From a virus (Duplodnaviria > Heunggongvirae > Uroviricota > Caudoviricetes), in IMG/VR virus record IMGVR_UViG_2681813273_000007, positions 1-9,930 of that record: a DNA stretch of 9,930 nucleotides; one strand, 5' to 3'. Positions 40 through 9,440 of this stretch are shown here, one piece after another (within the stretch, counting starts at the first letter, position 1; every line of letters starts with the position of its first letter). The notes under the pieces were generated by a model that saw nothing but the letters and a program-made list of their open reading frames with translations, was not told the origin of the DNA and made no database searches. The position numbers and the translations under genes were made by a program.

Positions 40-72
40 TATGCATTGGTAACACATCACATAGGGCGGATT

Positions 73-336
73 ATGAATCTTGGAGAATATTTGCATCATT
101 TTCATATAACCCAGAGTTCATTTGCTGAGATTGTTGGCGCATCCCAAGGGATGGTCAGCCACGTTATAACGGGGCGTGCAAAACTTACAGGAGAAAAAAT
201 ATTACGTTGGTGTGAAGCAACGGGATGGGTGGTGACCCCACATGAGATTGACAGTAAAACCTACCCCAACCCAACTGACGGCTTGCCTGCTGAGTTTCAG
301 GCTAACACACAACCATCGGCGGGGGTTGATTCATGA
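73..336 (+). CDS. ydaS: Cro-like HTH DNA-binding protein, YdaS family (ATG at 73; the ORF track starts at an upstream TTG at 46)
   Basis: Helix-turn-helix signature SSFAEIVGASQGMVSHVITGRAKLTGEKILRW; small size; stop overlaps the start of the next gene (ATGA at 333-336), as in ydaS-ydaT pairs of Rac-like prophages. Family assignment from memory. Confidence 0.6.
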   Translation: MNLGEYLHHFHITQSSFAEIVGASQGMVSHVITGRAKLTGEKILRWCEATGWVVTPHEIDSKTYPNPTDGLPAEFQANTQPSAGVDS

Positions 337-758
337 AAATCAAGCATGAACACATCCGCATGGCGATGAAAGCCTGGGCGCATCCGGACGGTGAAAAAGT
401 TCCGGCAGCTGAAATAACCAGGGTTTATTTCGAACTGGGAATGACGTTTCCGGTTCTGCATAACGACAGCAAGCACAACACGCTTTATCTCAACACCCAA
501 AAGATTTTCCGTTGGCTGGATAAAGACACCCCTGACGCTGTTGAAAAAATTCAGGCGTTGTTACCTGCGATCGAAAGGGCAATGCCACCTCCGCTGGTGG
601 CTCGAATGCGCAGCCACAGTTCAGCTTATTTTCGGGAACTGGTGGAGACGCATGAACGACTGGTGAGAGACGCTGATGATTTTGTCGCAGTGGCAATCGC
701 CGGTTTCAATCAGATGAACCGTGGTGGCCCGGCAGGAAATGCTGTGGCAGTACATTGA
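333..758 (+). CDS. ydaT: YdaT-like protein (CII-like regulator of Rac-type prophages)
   Basis: 141-aa ORF starting MKIKHEH, translationally coupled to the upstream cro-like gene; position and size match the YdaS/YdaT pair. Family assignment from memory of the YdaT N-terminus. Confidence 0.55.
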   Translation: MKIKHEHIRMAMKAWAHPDGEKVPAAEITRVYFELGMTFPVLHNDSKHNTLYLNTQKIFRWLDKDTPDAVEKIQALLPAIERAMPPPLVARMRSHSSAYFRELVETHERLVRDADDFVAVAIAGFNQMNRGGPAGNAVAVH

Positions 759-829
759 CTGACAATAGCCATATCGAATCGCTCCCGGCAACTCGTGAGT
801 AAAAAGATTCGGTATCAGAAGAGGTGAGT

Positions 830-1894
830 ATGGCTAACGCCTGGCTCAGATTATGGCATGACATGCCAAATGACCCTAAGTGGCGAACAATTGCCAGGGT
901 GTCAGGGCAGCCAATTGCAACAGTGATGGCAGTGTATATCCACCTCCTGGTGAGCGCGTCACGAAATGTCACGCGAGGTCACATTGATGTCACGACAGAA
1001 GATTTGGCAAGTGCGCTCGACGTGACAGAAGAGGTAATTGATTCAATTTTGCAGACGATGCAGGGGCGGGTACTTGATGGTGATTTAATCACTGGATGGG
1101 AAAAACGCCAGGTGCTTAAAGAGGACAACGGCAATATTTCGCAAACCGCAAAATCTCCTGCAGAGCGCAAGAGGGCGCAGCGAGAGAGGGAAAGAAAGCG
1201 GGAACAAAATGGCGATTGTCACGGCGCGTCACGAAATGTCACGCACATGTCACGACGAGTCACGACAGATACAGATAAAGATACAGATAAAGAAGATCAA
1301 AACACTATGGTCCATGGCGTAAAAAACGCCACGAACCAGGCAGGGGATGTTCAGACCGTCAATCCTGGTCAGCCAGCAGGCTCGACACCGGAAGCCGATT
1401 CAGCGTATGCGCTGAAAGCCGATTCGGGCGCTGTGCAGCAGGTGATGACCGCAAGGCCGGAGCAATCACTCCAACTGCAGCAGCCTGAAGCCGATTCCGC
1501 CATTCAGCGGGAAGCCGATCGGGTAGCCCCGGAAAACACCGGGCAGCCTGTGGGACGAGTGGATTATCCGGATGTGTTCGAACAGGTCTGGCGGGAATAC
1601 CCGTTGCGTGCCGGGGCAAACCCGAAGAAATCCGCATTCAGTGCCTGGAAGGCCAGATTGCGCGAGGGGGTGCCACCAGAGACCATGCTGGATGGTGTGA
1701 GGCGTTACGCGAGATACCTGGCGGCGACCGGGAAAGCGGGAACGGAATTTGTTCAGCGAGCGACGACGTTTTTTGGGCCGGACCGGAATTTTGAAAACCC
1801 CTGGTTGCTCCCGGTAAGCGGCACGAACAACCAGCGTTGTGTGAATCATATTTCTGAACCGGATACCGAAATTCCGCCGGGATTCAGGGGGTGA
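830..1894 (+). CDS. Phage replisome organizer (lambda O analogue) with DnaT-like C-terminal domain; ATG 830 preferred, GTG 824 also possible
   Basis: RBS GAGGTG at 821-826; C-terminus ...VNHISEPDTEIPPGFRG resembles the C-terminus of E. coli DnaT as I recall it; gene sits immediately upstream of a DnaC-like gene; central region is low-complexity and repeat-encoded. Confidence 0.7.
   Translation: MANAWLRLWHDMPNDPKWRTIARVSGQPIATVMAVYIHLLVSASRNVTRGHIDVTTEDLASALDVTEEVIDSILQTMQGRVLDGDLITGWEKRQVLKEDNGNISQTAKSPAERKRAQRERERKREQNGDCHGASRNVTHMSRRVTTDTDKDTDKEDQNTMVHGVKNATNQAGDVQTVNPGQPAGSTPEADSAYALKADSGAVQQVMTARPEQSLQLQQPEADSAIQREADRVAPENTGQPVGRVDYPDVFEQVWREYPLRAGANPKKSAFSAWKARLREGVPPETMLDGVRRYARYLAATGKAGTEFVQRATTFFGPDRNFENPWLLPVSGTNNQRCVNHISEPDTEIPPGFRG
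954..1292 (+). repeat. Iteron-like repeats inside the organizer gene: GTCACG at 958, 968, 978 (GTCACA), 989 and again at 1218, 1228, 1238, 1249, 1259; a 21-bp direct repeat at 954-974 and 1224-1244; tandem ATACAGATAAAG x2 at 1269-1292
   Basis: Counted directly; spacing within each cluster is 10, 10, 11 (and 10) bp, about one helical turn; an inverted copy CGTGAC lies at 1020-1025; AT-rich tract follows the second cluster. Confidence 0.55.
1391..1534 (+). repeat. Four degenerate 24-bp repeats beginning GAAGCCGATTC (1391, 1415, 1487, 1511) encoding EADS/KADS/EADS/EADR peptide repeats
   Basis: Counted directly in the linker region of the organizer gene. Confidence 0.5.
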
Positions 1895-1900
1895 TGTGGC

Positions 1901-2647
1901 ATGAAAAACATTGCGGCAGCCGGGGTTCTTGAACGTATTCACAGACTTGCACCACAGGGGGCGGTTCCACCGTACCGGACGGTGGAGGAGTGGCGGGAAT
2001 GGCAACTTGCTGAAGGACGAAAACGCAGCGAGGAGATTAACCGCCAGAATCGCCAGTTGCGGGTGGAAAAAATCCTGAATCGTTCGGGCATCCAGCCTCT
2101 GCACAGCAAATGCTCGTTTGCGAATTATCAGGTGCAGAACGACGGGCAAAAATACGCGCTGAGCCAGGCCAAATCCATAGCTGACGAACTGATGACCGGG
2201 TGCACGAATTTTGTGTTCAGCGGTAAAACCGGCACCGGGAAAAATCACCTTGCAGCGGCGATGGGTAACCGGCTGATGGCGAAGGGGCGCAGCGTGATTA
2301 TCGTCACCGAGTCTGATGTCATGAGCGTGTTGCATGACAGCTACGACAACGGCAAATCCGGTGAAAAATTTTTACAGGAGCTTTGCGGGGTTGATTTGCT
2401 GGTCCTGGATGAAATAGGCATTCAGCGGGAGACGAAAAACGAGCAGGTGGTATTGCACCAGATAATTGATCGCCGGACAGCATCACTGTGCAGTGTCGGG
2501 ATGTTAACAAACCTGAATCATGCCGCAATGAGCACGCTTCTTGGTGAGAGGATTATGGACCGCATGACCATGAACGGTTGTCGGTGGGTGACGTTTAACT
2601 GGGATAGCTGGCGTTCAAATGTCAGCTTTCCGGGAGTTGTGAAGTAA
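1901..2647 (+). CDS. DnaC-like replicative helicase loader (phage P analogue, AAA+ ATPase)
   Basis: Walker A FSGKTGTGKNHLAAA and Walker B LLVLDEIG; overall strong resemblance to host DnaC as recalled; start 7 nt after the stop of the DnaT-domain gene. Confidence 0.85.
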   Translation: MKNIAAAGVLERIHRLAPQGAVPPYRTVEEWREWQLAEGRKRSEEINRQNRQLRVEKILNRSGIQPLHSKCSFANYQVQNDGQKYALSQAKSIADELMTGCTNFVFSGKTGTGKNHLAAAMGNRLMAKGRSVIIVTESDVMSVLHDSYDNGKSGEKFLQELCGVDLLVLDEIGIQRETKNEQVVLHQIIDRRTASLCSVGMLTNLNHAAMSTLLGERIMDRMTMNGCRWVTFNWDSWRSNVSFPGVVK

Positions 2648-2668
2648 TTTTTGTTGGAGGATGTTTTA

Positions 2669-3394
2669 ATGGAAACTGTATTTGACGCACTGAAAGCACT
2701 GAAAAGAGCCTCTTCACATGTGGTGGCGTCCCGCCTTGGAATCAGCCGTGAAGATGCGGTCAACGAACTGTGGAAACTGAAGCGCCGTGGTGAAGCGGAT
2801 AACAAGGGTTCGATGTGGTGGCTGATTCAGGCTGGTGAAAGTGAACCAGTGTCACCGGTACCGAAAGTGACAGCGCAAATGCTGACTGAGGCGATTGAAC
2901 AACATGGCCCACAAACGGCGGATGAGCTGGCACTGATGTTCGGGATTACCTCCCGCCGGGCGAATTCATCGCTGGCCATGGCAATCAGCAAAGGGCGTCT
3001 GATTCGCGTGAATCAGGGCGGTAAATTTCGGTACTGCATACCGGGCGCTGATTTACCGGCAGAGCCGAAAGCCGCATCCATAGCGGAAACGGATGGTAAA
3101 GTCTTTCCTCAGCCAGCAGGTGTTGCGTTACCGGTACAGGAAGCTGCAACACAGGAAGAAATTAAAACAGAAACTGTGGCGGACATTGTGCAGTCGTTGC
3201 CATCGTTCACCGAAACGCAAGCGGATGACCTGGTTTTACCATCGCTGCATATGGCAAACCGCGAACTGCGTCGGGCGAAAAGTCATGTCCAGAAGTGGGA
3301 GCGTGTCTGCGCCGCGTTGCGGGAGCTGAACAAGCACCGGGATATTGTTCGACAGATTGTCGATTCCTCCGGTCGTATTGTGTCGGAAAAGTGA
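2669..3394 (+). CDS. Hypothetical prophage protein, 241 aa, two winged-helix-like segments and a charged C-terminal region (ORF track starts at TTG 2651; ATG 2669 has GGAGG 8 nt upstream)
   Basis: Long ORF with a good RBS; no family recognised. It has no counterpart between the DnaC-like and Ren-like genes of the second module. Confidence 0.5.
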
Positions 3395-3409
3395 TTGCCG
3401 GGGGCGCTT

Positions 3410-3649
3410 ATGGCAAAAGTATTTACACAGGAAGAGCGGGAAAAAATTAAGGGGCAGGTTGTTGAACTCGTACGCCAGAGTGGGCGCGAGACGTTACGAC
3501 AACTGGAAGCTAAAACCGGGGCGACAAGATATTTAATAAGCGTTCTCGCCAGAGAGCTGGTTGCCAGTGGGGATGTATACAACTCTGGCTACGGGTTATT
3601 CCCGTCTGAACAGGCTCGTAAGGACTGGCAAAACGCCCGCAAAAAACTC
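3410..3649 (+). pseudogene. ren: 5' part of a Ren-like gene (module I), interrupted after codon 80; the reading frame runs on into IS600 sequence to a stop at 3697
   Basis: Encodes MAKVFTQEEREK...QNARKKL, collinear with the intact 140-aa paralogue at 6359-6781; homology ends exactly where the IS end begins. Ren assignment from memory of the lambda Ren C-terminus (see 6359-6781). Confidence 0.55.
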
Positions 3650-3693
3650 ATGAGGTGTACTGGCAATAGCGGACACTACCATTTGTTCTTTTT

Positions 3694-4512
3694 TTAAGCA
3701 GCCATCTGATGATATTTTTCCCTGAAGGCTGCCGGGGAGATATTCCCCAGACGAGAGTGACGACGCTGACGATTGTAGAAAATCTCAATGTATTCCCGTA
3801 TTACTGAGATGGCTTCATCCCGGTTATTAAAACGATAGTGGCTCAGGCTCTCATTTTTCAGCGTTCCCCAGAAGCTTTCCATCGGAGCGTTGTCGTAACA
3901 GTTACCTTTACGCGACATTGATGTTTTCAGACCAGACTGCTCCTGTATGACCCGGTAATCGTATGCGCAGTACTGTGAACCTCGATCAGAGTGGTGGATT
4001 AGCCCGGCAGGTGGGCGCTGGCTCCTGAGCGCCATAAACAGGGCTTTACCTGTCAGCTCTTTTGTCATGCGCTCTCCCATGGCGTAGCCGACAATTTCGC
4101 ACGTATAAACATCTTTGATGCCAGCGAGGTACAACCATCCCTCCTGTGTGGCAACATACGTCAGGTCCGCCACCCAGACCTGATTTGGTGCTGTAGGAGC
4201 GAACGTCTGGTTCAGCAGATTTGGCGCAACTGGCAGATTGTGGTTCGAGTTCGTAGTCGCTCTGAACTTGCGTTTCTGCTTACAGCGTAGCCTTAGCTCC
4301 TTACGAAGACGTGCCAGTCGGTCACGACCAACGATGATGCCATTCTCTGCCAGCTCCGTCTGGAGCCGCCGGGTTCCATATGTTTCGCGAGTGCGGATAT
4401 GTGCCACCTTAATCTCCAGTTTTAGCCGCTCATCACTTTGTTTTCTGTCTGAGGGTTCATGCTGTACCCAGTTGTAATAACCGCTCCTGGATACACCAAA
4501 TACCTGACACAT
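3694..4512 (-). CDS. IS3-family transposase OrfB (DDE catalytic domain); the true OrfAB product is made by -1 frameshifting near 4592-4599, so the OrfB frame extends upstream of 4512
   Basis: 272-aa ORF from the first in-frame Met; integrase-like core; overlaps orfA in the -1 frame. Confidence 0.9.
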   Translation of the reverse strand: MCQVFGVSRSGYYNWVQHEPSDRKQSDERLKLEIKVAHIRTRETYGTRRLQTELAENGIIVGRDRLARLRKELRLRCKQKRKFRATTNSNHNLPVAPNLLNQTFAPTAPNQVWVADLTYVATQEGWLYLAGIKDVYTCEIVGYAMGERMTKELTGKALFMALRSQRPPAGLIHHSDRGSQYCAYDYRVIQEQSGLKTSMSRKGNCYDNAPMESFWGTLKNESLSHYRFNNRDEAISVIREYIEIFYNRQRRHSRLGNISPAAFREKYHQMAA

Positions 4513-4547
4513 CGCTTCAATGGGAAATTGTTGTCGCCATTGTTCGA

Positions 4548-4850
4548 TTAACGCGTATTTTTCAGCGACTCCTGTGCAAAATACGCTGTTGCTTTTTTTA
4601 ATATATCTCGCTCAAGGCGAGCTTCATTTAACGCCTTACGCAGTTGCAGAATTTCAGATTCCAGTTCAGCCACCGTGCGGGAACCAGGAGTACCGAGCCC
4701 TTTTCTGGCGGCGGTAACCCATTGTCCTAAAGTGCCTTCAGGAAGAGATAATCGGGAAGCGCCTTCACTGATCGAAAGTTGATTTTCAAGAACCGTTCTG
4801 ACAGCTTCGGCTTTGAACTCTTTAGAGTAACGTTGGGTTTTTCTGCTCAT
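4548..4850 (-). CDS. IS3-family transposase OrfA (HTH, leucine-zipper part)
   Basis: 100-aa ORF MSRKTQRYSKEFKAEAV... with an AAGGAG RBS; the A7G slippery motif (reverse complement of 4592-4599) lies near its 3' end. Confidence 0.9.
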   Translation of the reverse strand: MSRKTQRYSKEFKAEAVRTVLENQLSISEGASRLSLPEGTLGQWVTAARKGLGTPGSRTVAELESEILQLRKALNEARLERDILKKATAYFAQESLKNTR

Positions 4851-4914
4851 TATTAGCTCCTTCTGATGCCATTCTATTTCAGGAAGGAGTGTCCGTTAAA
4901 CTCAGGCTACCTCA

Positions 4915-5591
4915 GGTTATTCGCTTCTGGGCATGGGCGGATCAACAAATGATAGACGGTAATGCAGATTGTAACGCTCGCGGCGTTACAAAAAGTGCAA
5001 TAGATCGCATCACTTTTATGTCTGGTTTTGCTGATGCGTTAATTCAGGTTGGATGGCTGGTCGAAAATGACGGAGGGCTTTCTCTACCTAACTTTGAACG
5101 TCATAACGGAAAAAGCTCTAAAAAAAACGGGCGGTTACAAACGAGCGAGTAACAAAAATACGCGAACTGAAACGAAAAGGTAACGCTGCCAGCGTTACAC
5201 AAACGGATCAAAAAGCGTTACCAGAGGAAGAGGAAGAGGAAGATCTAAATACTGATCTCCCCCTCGCCAAAAACGAGCGTCTAAAAAATTCGAGCCGGAG
5301 GCTATTGAGCTGCCCGATTGGTTGCCGGAAACACTCTGGCATGAGTGGGTCCGGTTCAGACAGGCATTGCGAAAACCGATTCGAACGGAGCAGGGCGCTA
5401 ACGGGGCGATACGGGAACTGGAAAAATTCCGTCAGCAGGGTTTTACACCTGAGCAGGTGATTCGACACAGCATCGCCAATGAATACCAGGGCCTGTTCGC
5501 GCCGAAAGGTGTTCGGCCTGAGACGTTGCTCCGACAGGTTAACACCGTCTCGTTGCCGGACAGTGCGATCCCGCCAGGCTTCAGGGGGTAA
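4915..5591 (+). pseudogene. 5'-truncated, frameshifted replisome-organizer/DnaT-domain gene (module II)
   Basis: Begins abruptly at the IS end; three reading frames must be joined (switches inside A8 at 5120-5127 and A6 at 5283-5288) to obtain one protein ending ...VNTVSLPDSAIPPGFRG, the same C-terminal motif as the module I gene. Confidence 0.7.
4959..5221 (+). repeat. GTAACGC-type repeats in the module II organizer gene: 19-bp palindromes GTAACGC-N5-GCGTTAC at 4971-4989 and 5180-5198, half-sites at 4959-4965 (GTAATGC) and 5215-5221
   Basis: Counted directly; they occupy the same relative part of the gene as the GTCACG clusters of module I. Confidence 0.45.
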
Positions 5592-5597
5592 CGGACC

Positions 5598-6344
5598 ATG
5601 AAAAATATTGCGACAGGCGGCGTTCTGGAACGCATCCGCCGACTGACCCCGCCACATGTAACCGCCCCATTCAGAACGGTAGCGGAGTGGCGCGAGTGGC
5701 AACTTGCTGAAGGCCAGAAACGTAGCGAGGAGATCAACCGCCTGAATCGCCAGTTGCGGGTGGAAAAAATTCTGAATCGCTCAGGCATCCAGCCGTTGCA
5801 CCGTAAATGCTCGTTTGCGAATTACCAGGTGCAGAACGACGGCCAGCGATACGCGTTAAGCCAGGCGAAATCCATCGCCGATGAACTGATGACCGGGTGT
5901 ACAAATTTTGCGTTCAGCGGAAAACCTGGTACCGGGAAGAATCACTTAGCGGCAGCTATCGGGAATCGCCTGCTGAAAGACGGTCAGACAGTGATTGTGG
6001 TTACCGTGGCTGATGTTATGAGCGCCCTGCACGCCAGCTATGACGACGGGCAGTCAGGCGAAAAATTTTTGCGGGAGCTGTGCGAAGTGGATCTGCTGGT
6101 TCTTGATGAAATTGGCATTCAGCGCGAGACGAAAAACGAGCAGGTGGTGCTGCACCAGATTGTTGATCGCCGGACAGCGTCGATGCGCAGCGTGGGGATG
6201 CTGACAAACCTGAACTATGAGGTGATGAAAACATTGCTCGGCGAGCGGGTGATGGATCGCATGGTCATGAACGGCGGGCGCTGGGTGAATTTTAACTGGG
6301 AGAGCTGGCGTCCGAATGTTAGCCATTCGAGGGTTGTTAAGTAG
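5598..6344 (+). CDS. DnaC-like replicative helicase loader, second copy (about 85 percent identical in protein to 1901-2647)
   Basis: Walker A FSGKPGTGKNHLAAA, Walker B LLVLDEIG; collinear with the first copy. Confidence 0.85.
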   Translation: MKNIATGGVLERIRRLTPPHVTAPFRTVAEWREWQLAEGQKRSEEINRLNRQLRVEKILNRSGIQPLHRKCSFANYQVQNDGQRYALSQAKSIADELMTGCTNFAFSGKPGTGKNHLAAAIGNRLLKDGQTVIVVTVADVMSALHASYDDGQSGEKFLRELCEVDLLVLDEIGIQRETKNEQVVLHQIVDRRTASMRSVGMLTNLNYEVMKTLLGERVMDRMVMNGGRWVNFNWESWRPNVSHSRVVK

Positions 6345-6358
6345 TTTCAGGAGGATTT

Positions 6359-6781
6359 ATGGCGAAACCTTTTACTCCCGAACAGCGGGAAGAACTGAAG
6401 ACGCGAATTGTGGAACTCGTGCATCAGGACGGTCGGGTCACGATTCGGCAGTTGTCAGATGAAACAGGTATCAGTCGTGCGTCTGTCGGTCGCTTATGCA
6501 TAGAACTGGTCGCAAGTGGTGATGTATATAATTCTGGCTACGGCTTATTCCCGTCTGAACAGGCTCGCAAGGACTGGCAAAGCGCCCGCAAAAAACTCTC
6601 GAGAGTAAAGGTGAGGAAACCGGTTGTTGTTGATCCGGACCTTATCTGGTCATTACCTGACGGAGAAATACGCCGCTACGACAGGCGCCTGAATATAATC
6701 TGTCGCGAGTGCCGGAAGAGCGAAGCTATGCAGCGTGTACTGGCTTTCTATCAGGGTAATTTTCAGGAGGCGATACTGTGA
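6359..6781 (+). CDS. ren: Ren-like protein (module II), intact, 140 aa
   Basis: Strong RBS AGGAGG at 6348-6353; N-terminal winged-HTH-like segment and a C-terminus ...ICRECRKSEAMQRVLAFYQG that matches lambda Ren (...KECRQSAAMKRVLAVYG) as I recall it; position after the P-like gene as in lambda. Confidence 0.5.
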   Translation: MAKPFTPEQREELKTRIVELVHQDGRVTIRQLSDETGISRASVGRLCIELVASGDVYNSGYGLFPSEQARKDWQSARKKLSRVKVRKPVVVDPDLIWSLPDGEIRRYDRRLNIICRECRKSEAMQRVLAFYQGNFQEAIL

Positions 6782-6838
6782 ATGAAATTAGCTATCAGGC
6801 TTCAATTACCGCTGGCATTCGCATCAAAGGAGAGGAGC

Positions 6839-6952
6839 ATGGAAATAAAACGATATTGCTTAACTCATCTTCTGGTTTTATTTCCGGTAAAAGAGGATGA
6901 CCCTCGTAATCAGGTTAATTTTCTTTATGAGCCATCGGAAAGACCATATTAG
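6839..6952 (+). pseudogene. Truncated 5' fragment (37 codons) of the small Cys/coiled-coil gene, module II allele
   Basis: MEIKRYCLTHLLVLFPVKEDDPRNQVNFLYEPSERPY then a stop at the junction; same RBS and start context as the intact gene at 7215. Confidence 0.45.
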
Positions 6953-7157
6953 GCAAAACGCCCGCAAAAAACTCTCGAGGGCAAAGCTGAAGAAACCATC
7001 TGTGGTTGATCCGGACCTTATCTGGTCATTACCGGACGGAGAAATACGCCGCTACGACAGACATCAGAACATAATCTGTCGCGAGTGCCGGAAGAGTGAA
7101 GTTATGCAGCGTGTACCGGCTTTCTATCAGGGTGATTTTCAGGAGGCGGTACTGTGA
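6952..7157 (+). pseudogene. ren: 3' part of the split module I Ren-like gene
   Basis: Encodes QNARKKLSRAKLKKPSVVDPDLIWSLPDGEIRRYDRHQNIICRECRKSEVMQRVPAFYQGDFQEAVL; its first 23 bp (6952-6974) are identical to 3627-3649, the last bases of the 5' part before IS600. Confidence 0.6.
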
Positions 7158-7214
7158 GTGAAATTAGCTATCAGGCTTCAATTACCGCTGGCATTCGCAT
7201 CAAAGGAGAGGAGC

Positions 7215-7571
7215 ATGGAAATAAAACCAGAAGATGAGTTAAGCAATATTGTTTTATTTCCGGTAAAAGAGGATAACCCTCGTAATCAGGTTAATTTTCT
7301 TTATGAGCCATCGGAAAGACCATATTGCCATCACGCTTCTGTCCGGGTTGACGAAAAAGAGCGTCAGGTCCGCTGTAAAATTTGCGGTGCAGTTGTGGAG
7401 CCATTTGACTGGATGCTCTCTGTGGCGAAAAGAGAAACCAGACTGGCAGATGATGTAAGGCTCTTGCGCCAGGAGGAGCGGGAAAGGCGAAAAAATATAG
7501 AAAAGCTAATCCAGATTGAGCGTAATGCGAAAGCGCGGATACGCAGGGTGACAAAATATAGCCCCGAATAA
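7215..7571 (+). CDS. Hypothetical small protein, 118 aa, Cys/His cluster (C-H-H ... C-x2-C) followed by a charged coiled-coil-like C-terminus
   Basis: Strong RBS AGGAG at 7203-7210 with ATG at 7215; the ORF track begins at an upstream in-frame codon (7158), which I do not prefer. Confidence 0.5.
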   Translation: MEIKPEDELSNIVLFPVKEDNPRNQVNFLYEPSERPYCHHASVRVDEKERQVRCKICGAVVEPFDWMLSVAKRETRLADDVRLLRQEERERRKNIEKLIQIERNAKARIRRVTKYSPE

Positions 7572-7785: not shown

Positions 7786-8223
7786 ATGGCCCGCATGTTT
7801 GATACATTAGGATTTTACATTATGAATGTGCAACATTTTGATTTTTTTACAGATAATGAGTTTTCTAATCTGGAAAGATATCAAACTTGTAAAGCCATGG
7901 CCAAAGGTTATGCGGGCAATTACAAAACCGGGCAGTCAAGGTTGATGCATGCCCGCTCATACTGCTTCAGCATCGTAGCTGCATATTGGGATACACGGGT
8001 TGACGAAAAAGAGCGTCAGGTCCGCTGTAAAATCTGCGGTGCGGTTGTGGAGCCGTTTGACTGGATGCTCTCTGTGGCAAAAAGAGAAACCAGACTGGCA
8101 GATGATGTAAGGCTATTGCGCCAGGAGGAACAGGAAAGGCGGAGAAATATAGAAAAGCTGATACAGATTGAGCGTAACGCGAAAGCGCGGATACGCAGGG
8201 CGACAAAATCCAGAACTGAATAA
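7786..8223 (+). CDS. Hypothetical paralogue of the 118-aa protein: different N-terminal half, near-identical C-terminal 75 aa (alternative start ATG 7822 with AGGA 8 nt upstream)
   Basis: DNA 7996-8208 is about 95 percent identical to 7343-7555; upstream parts are unrelated. Confidence 0.45.
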   Translation: MARMFDTLGFYIMNVQHFDFFTDNEFSNLERYQTCKAMAKGYAGNYKTGQSRLMHARSYCFSIVAAYWDTRVDEKERQVRCKICGAVVEPFDWMLSVAKRETRLADDVRLLRQEEQERRRNIEKLIQIERNAKARIRRATKSRTE

Positions 8224-8370: not shown

Positions 8371-9057
8371 ATGACCCCAATAAACATATTTATGACAGTT
8401 GCTGATTTCAAACGGCCCAAATTGGAGCTCCCAAACGGGGCAAACAAACTACTACTGCACTCTTGCTGTGCTCCATGTTCCGGTGAGGTGATGGAGGCGC
8501 TTCAGGCCTCGGGAATCGACTACACCATCTTTTTCTACAACCCGAACATTCATCCTCAGAAAGAGTATTTAATTCGTAAGGATGAGAATATTCGCTTTGC
8601 TGAACAACACGGCGTGCCGTTTATTGATGCTGATTACGACACAGACAACTGGTTTGAACGAGCCAAAGGAATGGAATGGGAGCCCGAACGAGGGATCCGT
8701 TGCACCATGTGTTTTGACATGCGTTTTGAGCGGACAGCGCTGTACGCCGCTGAAAATGGTTTCAGTGTGATCAGCAGTTCACTGGGCATTTCACGCTGGA
8801 AAAATATGCAGCAGGTTAACGACTGTGGGCGGCGAGCCGTCGCGCATTATCCGGGCATGGTGTACTGGGATTATAACTGGCGCAAGCAGGGCGGCTCGTC
8901 CCGTATGATTGAAATCAGCAAGCGCGAAAAATTCTATCAGCAGGAATATTGTGGCTGTGTGTATTCTCTGCGCGATACCAATCTACACCGCAAATCTCAG
9001 GGACGCCCTCTTATCAAAATTGGTCAACTCCACTACGGTAAAGAAGAGAAGGAGTGA
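8371..9057 (+). CDS. queH: QueH-like protein (DUF208 family, epoxyqueuosine reductase-like); start may be the internal ATG at 8392
   Basis: N-terminal [11 protein letters not shown] motif plus later Cys pairs (CTMC, CGC), which I recall as the DUF208/QueH signature; 228 aa is the expected size. Not verified by search. Confidence 0.55.
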
Positions 9058-9116
9058 TTTTATGGGGCACCTTTCTGATTGATTTCATATTGGCGAGGTA
9101 AGTAGAATGACTGCGG

Positions 9117-9284
9117 GTGCTTGAGGCTATCTGCTTCAGGCATGAACACCAAAAGGCAGATAGAGAAAAGCCCCAGTTAACATTACGCGTCCGGCAAGAC
9201 GCTTAACATTAATCTGAGGCCAATTTCATGCTTTGCACATGTAGGTTAGCCTCTTACATGCCGAAAGGCAAGGAGAAGCAGGCT
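9117..9284 (+). promoter_or_regulatory. Leader of the hok-family mRNA (predicted 5' folding elements)
   Basis: Sequence GCTTGAGGCTATCTGC...GCAGATAG forms an 8-bp stem (9127-9134 with 9156-9163) and resembles hok mRNA leaders as recalled; precise 5' end not determinable. Confidence 0.4.
9180..9260 (-). ncRNA. sok: Predicted sok-like antisense RNA overlapping the mok start region (position approximate)
   Basis: Inferred only from the conserved organisation of hok/sok loci; I could not define a convincing promoter or terminator on the minus strand. Confidence 0.25.
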
Positions 9285-9440
9285 ATGAAGCAGCAAAAGG
9301 CGATGTTAATCGCCCTGATCGTCATCTGTTTAACCGTCATAGTGACGGCACTGGTAACGAGGAAAGACCTCTGTGAGGTACGAATCCGAACCGGCCAGAC
9401 GGAGGTCGCTGTCTTCGTAGACTACGAATCCAGGAAGTAA
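9228..9440 (+). CDS. mok: Mok-like reading frame (in-frame N-terminal extension of hok)
   Basis: 70-aa ORF MLCTCRLASYMPKGKEKQA followed in frame by the Hok peptide, as in chromosomal mok/hok pairs. Confidence 0.55.
   Translation: MLCTCRLASYMPKGKEKQAMKQQKAMLIALIVICLTVIVTALVTRKDLCEVRIRTGQTEVAVFVDYESRK
9285..9440 (+). CDS. hok: Hok/Gef-family type I toxin, 51 aa, single transmembrane helix
   Basis: MKQQKAMLIALIVICLTVIVTALVTRKDLCEVRIRTGQTEVAVFVDYESRK is very close to HokC/HokD as recalled; AAGGAG RBS 10 nt upstream. Confidence 0.85.
   Translation: MKQQKAMLIALIVICLTVIVTALVTRKDLCEVRIRTGQTEVAVFVDYESRK

Follow-up and report, generated by a model that had tools for sequence, protein, structure and literature searches.

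A DUF1627 gene of the ydaW type behind the helicase-loader gene of a Rac-type lambdoid prophage

The stretch of viral DNA analysed here (the window, 9,930 nucleotides in full) carries the early-right operon of a Rac-type lambdoid prophage twice; the copies are referred to below as module I and module II and are joined by an IS600 element (Table 1). The insertion sequence begins at 3651, where it interrupts the last gene of module I, and on its other side it abuts a module II that has lost its 5' end. What is left of the module II initiator, a ydaU-like gene, lies at 4915-5591, is truncated at its 5' end by IS600 and is split into the open reading frames 4889-5152 and 5322-5591, so that it is probably a pseudogene. 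For the interrupted DUF977 gene of module I, the ATG at 3410, 15 nt past the stop codon of the preceding gene, is most likely the true start, in preference to the listed TTG at 3395. No complete E. coli genome covering the window was found. A related contig in IMG/VR (L006) is 100% identical on both sides and retains 692 bp more between DUF977 and the insertion sequence, and the window therefore bears a deletion adjacent to the IS.

Table 1. Features of module I, of the 241-residue protein encoded in it, and of the elements that follow
Feature	Position	Strand	Basis and remarks
Cro-like HTH gene, module I	46-336		
YdaT/CII-like gene, module I	333-758		
Replication initiator, 356 aa, module I	824-1894		
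ydaV-like gene, DnaC-type helicase loader, module I	1901..2647	+	NCBIfam PRK12377 E 2.4e-150; phrog_50 DnaC-like helicase loader
GGAGG ribosome-binding site	2656..2660	+	Sequence; 8 nt 5' of the ATG, within the 21-nt ydaV-ydaW spacer
ydaW-like gene, 241-aa DUF1627 protein	2669..3394, stop codon included	+	Open reading frame list, sequence, profile matches
Predicted winged-helix domain 1, residues 1-about 55	2669..2833	+	AlphaFold2 model (pLDDT about 88-95); net charge +3
Predicted winged-helix domain 2, residues 67-about 125	2867..3043	+	AlphaFold2 model (pLDDT about 88-95); net charge +3
Acidic Pro/Glu/Thr/Ala-rich linker, predicted disordered, residues 126-190	3044..3238	+	Net charge -9
Predicted basic amphipathic C-terminal helix, residues 193-239	3245..3385	+	AlphaFold2 model; net charge +6
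DUF977 / 'Ren-like' gene, module I	3410..3650	+	PF06163, phrog_142; cut by IS600 after ~80 codons
IS600, 1264 bp, joining both modules	3651..4914	-	99.4% identity over 1264 bp to the annotated IS600 in NZ_CP065615
Module II: ydaV 5598-6344, 14-nt spacer, DUF977 6359-6781, without ydaW	5598..6781	+	Open reading frame list

The region downstream of module II contains partial duplications. Positions 6576-6950 recur at 6952-7326 with 90.5% identity, a repeat that takes in the 3' portion (half) of DUF977 together with the open reading frame behind it, and 7344-7557 recurs at 7996-8209 with 93.9%. In contig L006, the sequence behind DUF977 of module I is 99% identical to 6952-7557 of the window. Further on, still inside the prophage, lie a 228-aa open reading frame (8371-9057), whose counterpart in a near-identical E. 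coli record bears the annotation epoxyqueuosine reductase QueH, and a hok/sok-type type I toxin-antitoxin locus (9115-9440) composed of a match to the Rfam family sok RF01794 (117 bits, 9115-9290) and a Hok-like open reading frame (9228-9440).

The gene of interest in module I is an intact open reading frame of 726 nt that runs from an ATG at 2669 to a TGA at 3392-3394. An earlier note on this DNA had described such a gene of 241 codons between a DnaC-like and a Ren-like gene and had reported it from module I only, and both the coordinates and a comparison of the window with itself agree with that description. The likeness between the modules covers 1871-2650 (78.9% at the nucleotide level), ends 3 nt past the ydaV stop codon, and resumes inside DUF977, where 3550-3649 matches 6499-6598; no counterpart of 2669-3394 was found in module II by this self-comparison. 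The same note had placed the Ren-like gene of module II, which is DUF977, next after the DnaC-like gene at a distance of 15 bp; the order is as it stated, and the spacer (TTTCAGGAGGATTT) measures 14 nt.

A chance reading frame is ruled out, because the protein matches PF07789 with 309 bits, has 2289 homologous protein clusters, and is encoded by a gene with a pN/pS of 0.43 over 103 distinct alleles. It is 99-100% identical to proteins of Shigella sonnei, as are the other proteins of the window, and S. sonnei is probably the source of this DNA. The ydaV-ydaW spacers of relatives are similar to that of the window and likewise contain GGAGG or GGGAGG. The GC content of 0.52-0.54 across the gene shows no discontinuity with the flanks (0.50-0.55), and a scan for consensus sequences alone found no promoter-like or + strand terminator-like site within 1800-3800. 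Inside the gene, no repeats of meaning, no promoter and no Rfam family were found. At the DNA level there is thus no support for an origin, iterons or an RNA concealed within the gene.

The protein belongs to the family PF07789 (DUF1627), which it matches with 309.2 bits against a cut-off of 28.1 (E 5.9e-93) over all 155 of the 155 profile positions (1-155), and it matches phrog_630, a family of 'unknown function', over its full length (E 1.7e-121, positions 1-252 of 253). The best-known relative is ydaW (b1361) of the Rac prophage of E. coli K-12, which starts 22 nt past ydaV and has the same neighbour in the same order as the gene in the window; BLASTP aligns the two proteins with 57% identity over the N-terminal 151 residues (E 2e-56). 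Homologues are named YdaW or 'YdaW family' in several phage records. On these grounds, the 241-aa open reading frame is almost certainly ydaW, the DUF1627 gene of the Rac-type replication block ydaU-ydaV-ydaW, and it is so named below. The two proteins share family and position after ydaV and differ in length: YdaW of K-12 has 186 residues, its likeness to the copy in the window ends near residue 139 and it lacks the C-terminal helix, whereas the window copy is full length. We infer that the K-12 protein is short because of an abutting deletion inside Rac. The gene called 'Ren-like' in the earlier note belongs to DUF977 (phrog_142) and is named LygF in some phage records.

The earlier note had been unable to assign a function to the 241-aa protein, and none can be assigned from homology. 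NCBIfam has no family for YdaW, a sequence search of the PDB gave weak winged-helix matches only (E of 0.05 or worse), and no functional study of DUF1627, PF07789, DUF977, LygF or YdaW was found in the literature. The taxonomic breadth of the family was judged from a search of representative proteins combined with cluster look-ups. By this measure DUF1627 is narrow, with 220 clusters at 50% identity among 1.84 billion representatives, and its named members, as far as examined, belong to E. coli/Shigella, Salmonella and Citrobacter. A scan of contigs with a single YdaW protein returned only E. albertii and one spurious match.

An AlphaFold2 model of YdaW was computed from an alignment of 26 sequences (mean pLDDT 70, pTM 0.31). 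Two winged-helix-like segments had been seen in the protein before, and the model supports them at residues 1-52 and 67-123 with a pLDDT of about 88-95; the predicted fold is that of a winged helix with a basic recognition surface. How these domains are oriented to each other is uncertain in the model (pTM 0.31). Between them and the C-terminal helix lies the acidic linker, whose residues 131-189 have a pLDDT below 50 and whose length and sequence vary between alleles, with indels and low conservation (alignments A2 and A4). A conserved motif, PSFTE..DDL.LPS, precedes the C-terminal helix, which is nearly invariant in E. coli/Shigella and keeps its pattern across genera. The alignments (A2, A4) and the AlphaFold2 model give one order for the whole family, namely winged helix 1, spacer, winged helix 2, variable linker, motif and basic C-terminal helix, and this architecture is kept down to 21% identity, including PSFTE..DDL.LPS followed by the basic helix (R..RRAK...).

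The YdaW protein is under purifying selection. The pN/pS ratio falls to its minima in the recognition-helix region of domain 1 (0.15) and in the C-terminal helix (0.14, with a pS of 0.22). Synonymous diversity at these minima is 0.2-0.4, and the constraint therefore acts on the protein and not on the DNA. The alleles of DUF1627 are intragenic mosaics, for example P0131 and P0134 in alignment A2; P0131 has an N-terminal winged-helix region of one clade, to which a linker and C-terminus from a second clade are joined.

Two consecutive winged helices are also found in ScpB, in Vps25 and Vps36 of ESCRT-II and in the C-terminal domains of SelB, which gave the best Foldseek matches (E 1e-4 to 1e-5). 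These tandem scaffolds have no sequence relationship to YdaW, and with a whole-chain TM of ~0.2 the likeness is that of generic winged helices. Their partners are kleisin, other proteins or RNA, and neither the acidic linker nor the C-terminal helix of YdaW is present in them. MarR/ArsR factors differ in another way, being single-domain homodimers with dedicated dimerisation helices, and no Pfam model for them reaches its cut-off with YdaW. These comparisons bear on the possibility that YdaW is a conventional transcription factor, that is, an early winged-helix regulator of the MarR/ArsR kind acting on phage or host genes such as those of the downstream nin-like region. We place this reading on the unlikely side. 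MarR and ArsR proteins are not built as two winged helices in one chain with a long, disordered and acidic linker and a further helix behind them, all HTH matches in Pfam fall below their cut-offs, the gene and its vicinity showed no conserved repeats that resemble operators, and the closest tandem-winged-helix folds (ScpB, ESCRT-II, SelB) are scaffolds that bind protein or RNA.

The surroundings of the gene in relatives were sampled from the 80 nearest IMG/VR loci per query, the loci being selected through ydaV or DUF977. DUF1627 stands directly after ydaV in 78 of the 80 loci nearest to YdaV of module I and in 61 of the 80 nearest to YdaV of module II. The remaining 19 of the latter 80 have a direct ydaV-DUF977 junction, and with 99-100% identity they are in essence the lineage of module II. 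Among 5426 complete E. coli genomes, a probe for the ydaV-ydaW junction was spanned in 1190 and a probe for the direct ydaV-DUF977 junction in 28, while DUF1627 DNA was detectable in 3232 (~60%), with 7216 places in all and a maximum of 9 in one genome. A close YdaV (at least 79% identity) was found in 11 phage records, and DUF1627 was present in 11/11; they include the inducible Stx phages 75/02 and POCJ13 as well as PhiR5_2, three phages that have lambda-like immunity regions and in which ydaW follows ydaV as it does in the window.

The position holds at greater distances. Members of the family from Salmonella (31% identity) and Citrobacter koseri (26%) start 17-20 nt past a DnaC-like gene, and in Rac-SA53, PPompW and pPE4 ydaW follows a lambda-P-type loader, which is non-homologous to DnaC. 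Divergent full-length DUF1627 genes were also noted in P2-like Salmonella prophages (L253 3501-4268 and L254 3127-3846), where a RecE-like (Exonuc_VIII) gene of 660-670 aa comes first, its stop overlapping the DUF1627 start, and a Dam-type methyltransferase and gpA lie downstream. The earlier note had proposed that occupancy of the site be compared across related prophages, on the view that accessory genes sit there; the comparison finds the gene after the loader in the great majority, Stx phages, Salmonella and Citrobacter included. It had also stated that its view would fail if most related phages had homologues at a conserved place and with a known role in replication. The conserved position in most relatives was found, and a known replication role was not.

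DUF977/LygF and YdaW resemble each other in being small winged-helix proteins of the early operon, encoded directly after replication genes. DUF977 has one winged helix and a Cys-containing C-terminal domain, whereas YdaW has two winged helices, and the two genes also differ in the company they keep. Among 80 loci chosen around DUF977, the DUF977 gene itself is seen both with and without a loader, whereas ydaW is seen only with one: it is present in 40 of the 52 loci with a loader and in 0 of the 28 without. In these 28 loci (within L184-L239) DUF977 comes straight after the initiator, with neither loader nor DUF1627. The last 20 residues of their initiators are the same as those of the module I initiator, and the related initiators of Rac-SA53 and PPompW carry a Pfam DnaT domain further upstream. 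The linkage between alleles, expressed as adjusted mutual information, is 0.68 between ydaV and the N-terminus of ydaW and 0.13 or less between ydaW and DUF977. After ydaW the genes vary and include DUF977, Ead/Ea22-like genes and small HTH genes. As far as gene order and alleles can tell, loader and ydaW thus behave as an optional two-gene unit, jointly present or absent, and the truly variable region would begin after ydaW. Adjacency and shared ancestry alone can explain the linkage to ydaV. Co-variation between the winged-helix clade and the type of initiator was considered as a hint of origin binding and was set aside, being no stronger than distance-dependent linkage.

These counts bear on the earlier suggestion that the gene is variable accessory cargo at a fixed slot, a moron-like insertion that would serve the lysogen, for example through superinfection exclusion or defence. 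The difference between modules I and II is a real presence/absence polymorphism, the adjoining DUF977 family carries the label 'Ren-like exclusion protein', and accessory genes often lie beside replication genes in prophages, all of which speak for this suggestion. Against it, the position is constant across three genera, absence of the gene is rare and derived among relatives, and sporadic presence among collinear close relatives, by which a moron would be recognised, is not seen (78/80 and 61/80 occupied; 1190 genomes vs 28). In the consensus scan the gene has neither a promoter nor a terminator of its own, and it shows no GC shift; lacking the first two, it would stay unexpressed in a repressed prophage. 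The sole match in PADLOC-DB is marginal and partial (SWIM_XIII, E 0.0099, 12.5 bits). We therefore regard a role as accessory cargo as very improbable, and the sequence comparisons make it close to certain that ydaW does not belong in that class. The QueH-annotated open reading frame at 8371-9057 is a better candidate for true accessory cargo.

The direction of the difference between the modules was taken from distribution and a tree, since the junction sequence is silent on polarity: the 14-nt spacer between ydaV and the Ren-like gene in module II resembles both the ydaV-ydaW spacer and the spacer between ydaW and the Ren-like gene, a likeness that fits deletion and insertion alike. YdaV proteins were placed on a tree by neighbour joining. 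Those from loci that lack ydaW, namely module II, E. coli A25 and two more, each branch singly within clades that bear ydaW, and the outgroups from Salmonella and Citrobacter carry the gene. Module II would therefore represent the derived state, and the scattered tips point to repeated loss. The most economical reading of these sequences is that module II lost ydaW, that loader and ydaW form a unit, and that the mosaic boundary lies 3' of ydaW.

As to what YdaW does, we tentatively favour, at a little short of an even chance, a role in which YdaW, as a tethered DNA-binding adaptor, aids or adjusts the initiation of phage replication. The gene is co-oriented with the replication genes, tightly spaced and inherited with the loader gene, and the conserved adjacency to and co-inheritance with the helicase loader are those of a member of the replication module, with the P2-like context after a RecE-like gene as the exception. 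Once the prophage is derepressed, YdaW would be made alongside the replication proteins. Its winged-helix domains would bind DNA, while the C-terminal helix and its motif may dimerise or dock on a partner, which could be the loader-helicase complex or a host protein, and the protein held in this way would help or tune initiation. The adaptor role is favoured because ydaW adjoins two unrelated types of loader, is present or absent together with the loader, and has a fitting domain layout. The existence of prophages without ydaW (module II, E. coli A25, Gifsy-2) counts against it. Additionally, because the DUF1627 gene of P2-like Salmonella prophages follows a RecE-like gene, the common denominator may be an 'early DNA-metabolism operon' and not helicase loading.

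A different role for an early gene in this place would be counter-defence or host takeover, in which YdaW neutralises an abortive-infection or exclusion system provoked by the replication or recombination functions of the phage. It might do so by blocking a retron toxin or by behaving like Ren of lambda, through which that phage escapes Rex. In lambda, ren comes after P, a place that matches that of ydaW, and ydaW itself lies beside a Ren-like gene or replaces it. The second winged-helix domain is weakly like phrog_142, the 'Ren-like exclusion protein' (E 1.9e-4 for the window protein, with no stretch that passes alone, and E 6.6e-6 for a Salmonella homologue), but hhalign gives a probability of 19% for YdaW and DUF977, which is below any threshold for membership. 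A lead comes from a screen in which overexpression of K-12 ydaW, among other prophage genes, relieved the toxicity of RcaT, the toxin of retron-Sen2, and in which RecE and Dam were triggers (bioRxiv 10.1101/2020.06.22.160242). The overlap with a RecE-like gene and the position upstream of a Dam-type methyltransferase in P2-like Salmonella prophages fit that lead. However, it is one overexpression result, in a preprint, with the truncated K-12 protein; the screen has many unspecific blockers (Clp, DnaJ and translation genes), and the preprint is silent on whether the 11 re-tested hits included ydaW (bioRxiv 10.1101/2020.06.22.160242). Counter-defence genes are usually patchy and fast-evolving, whereas ydaW is nearly universal after the loader and under purifying selection. 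The RecE/Dam context, the lead from the RcaT screen and the weak Ren likeness together keep a counter-defence role alive, and we consider it unlikely. The more specific proposal, that DUF1627/YdaW is a counter-defence protein encoded beside functions that trigger abortive infection (RecE-like exonuclease, Dam, helicase loading) and blocks a toxin, is in our view decidedly unlikely.

Judged by sequence and gene order, ydaW is here a known and very common prophage gene in its canonical place. The conspicuous feature of the window would then reflect a loss in module II and no gain in module I, and the real mosaic boundary, together with the variable slot, would move to the 3' side of ydaW. DUF1627/YdaW is present in more than half of the complete E. 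coli genomes, under purifying selection and tied to the helicase loader across three genera. If the counter-defence reading were true, it would give a role to one of the commonest prophage genes of unassigned function in E. coli.
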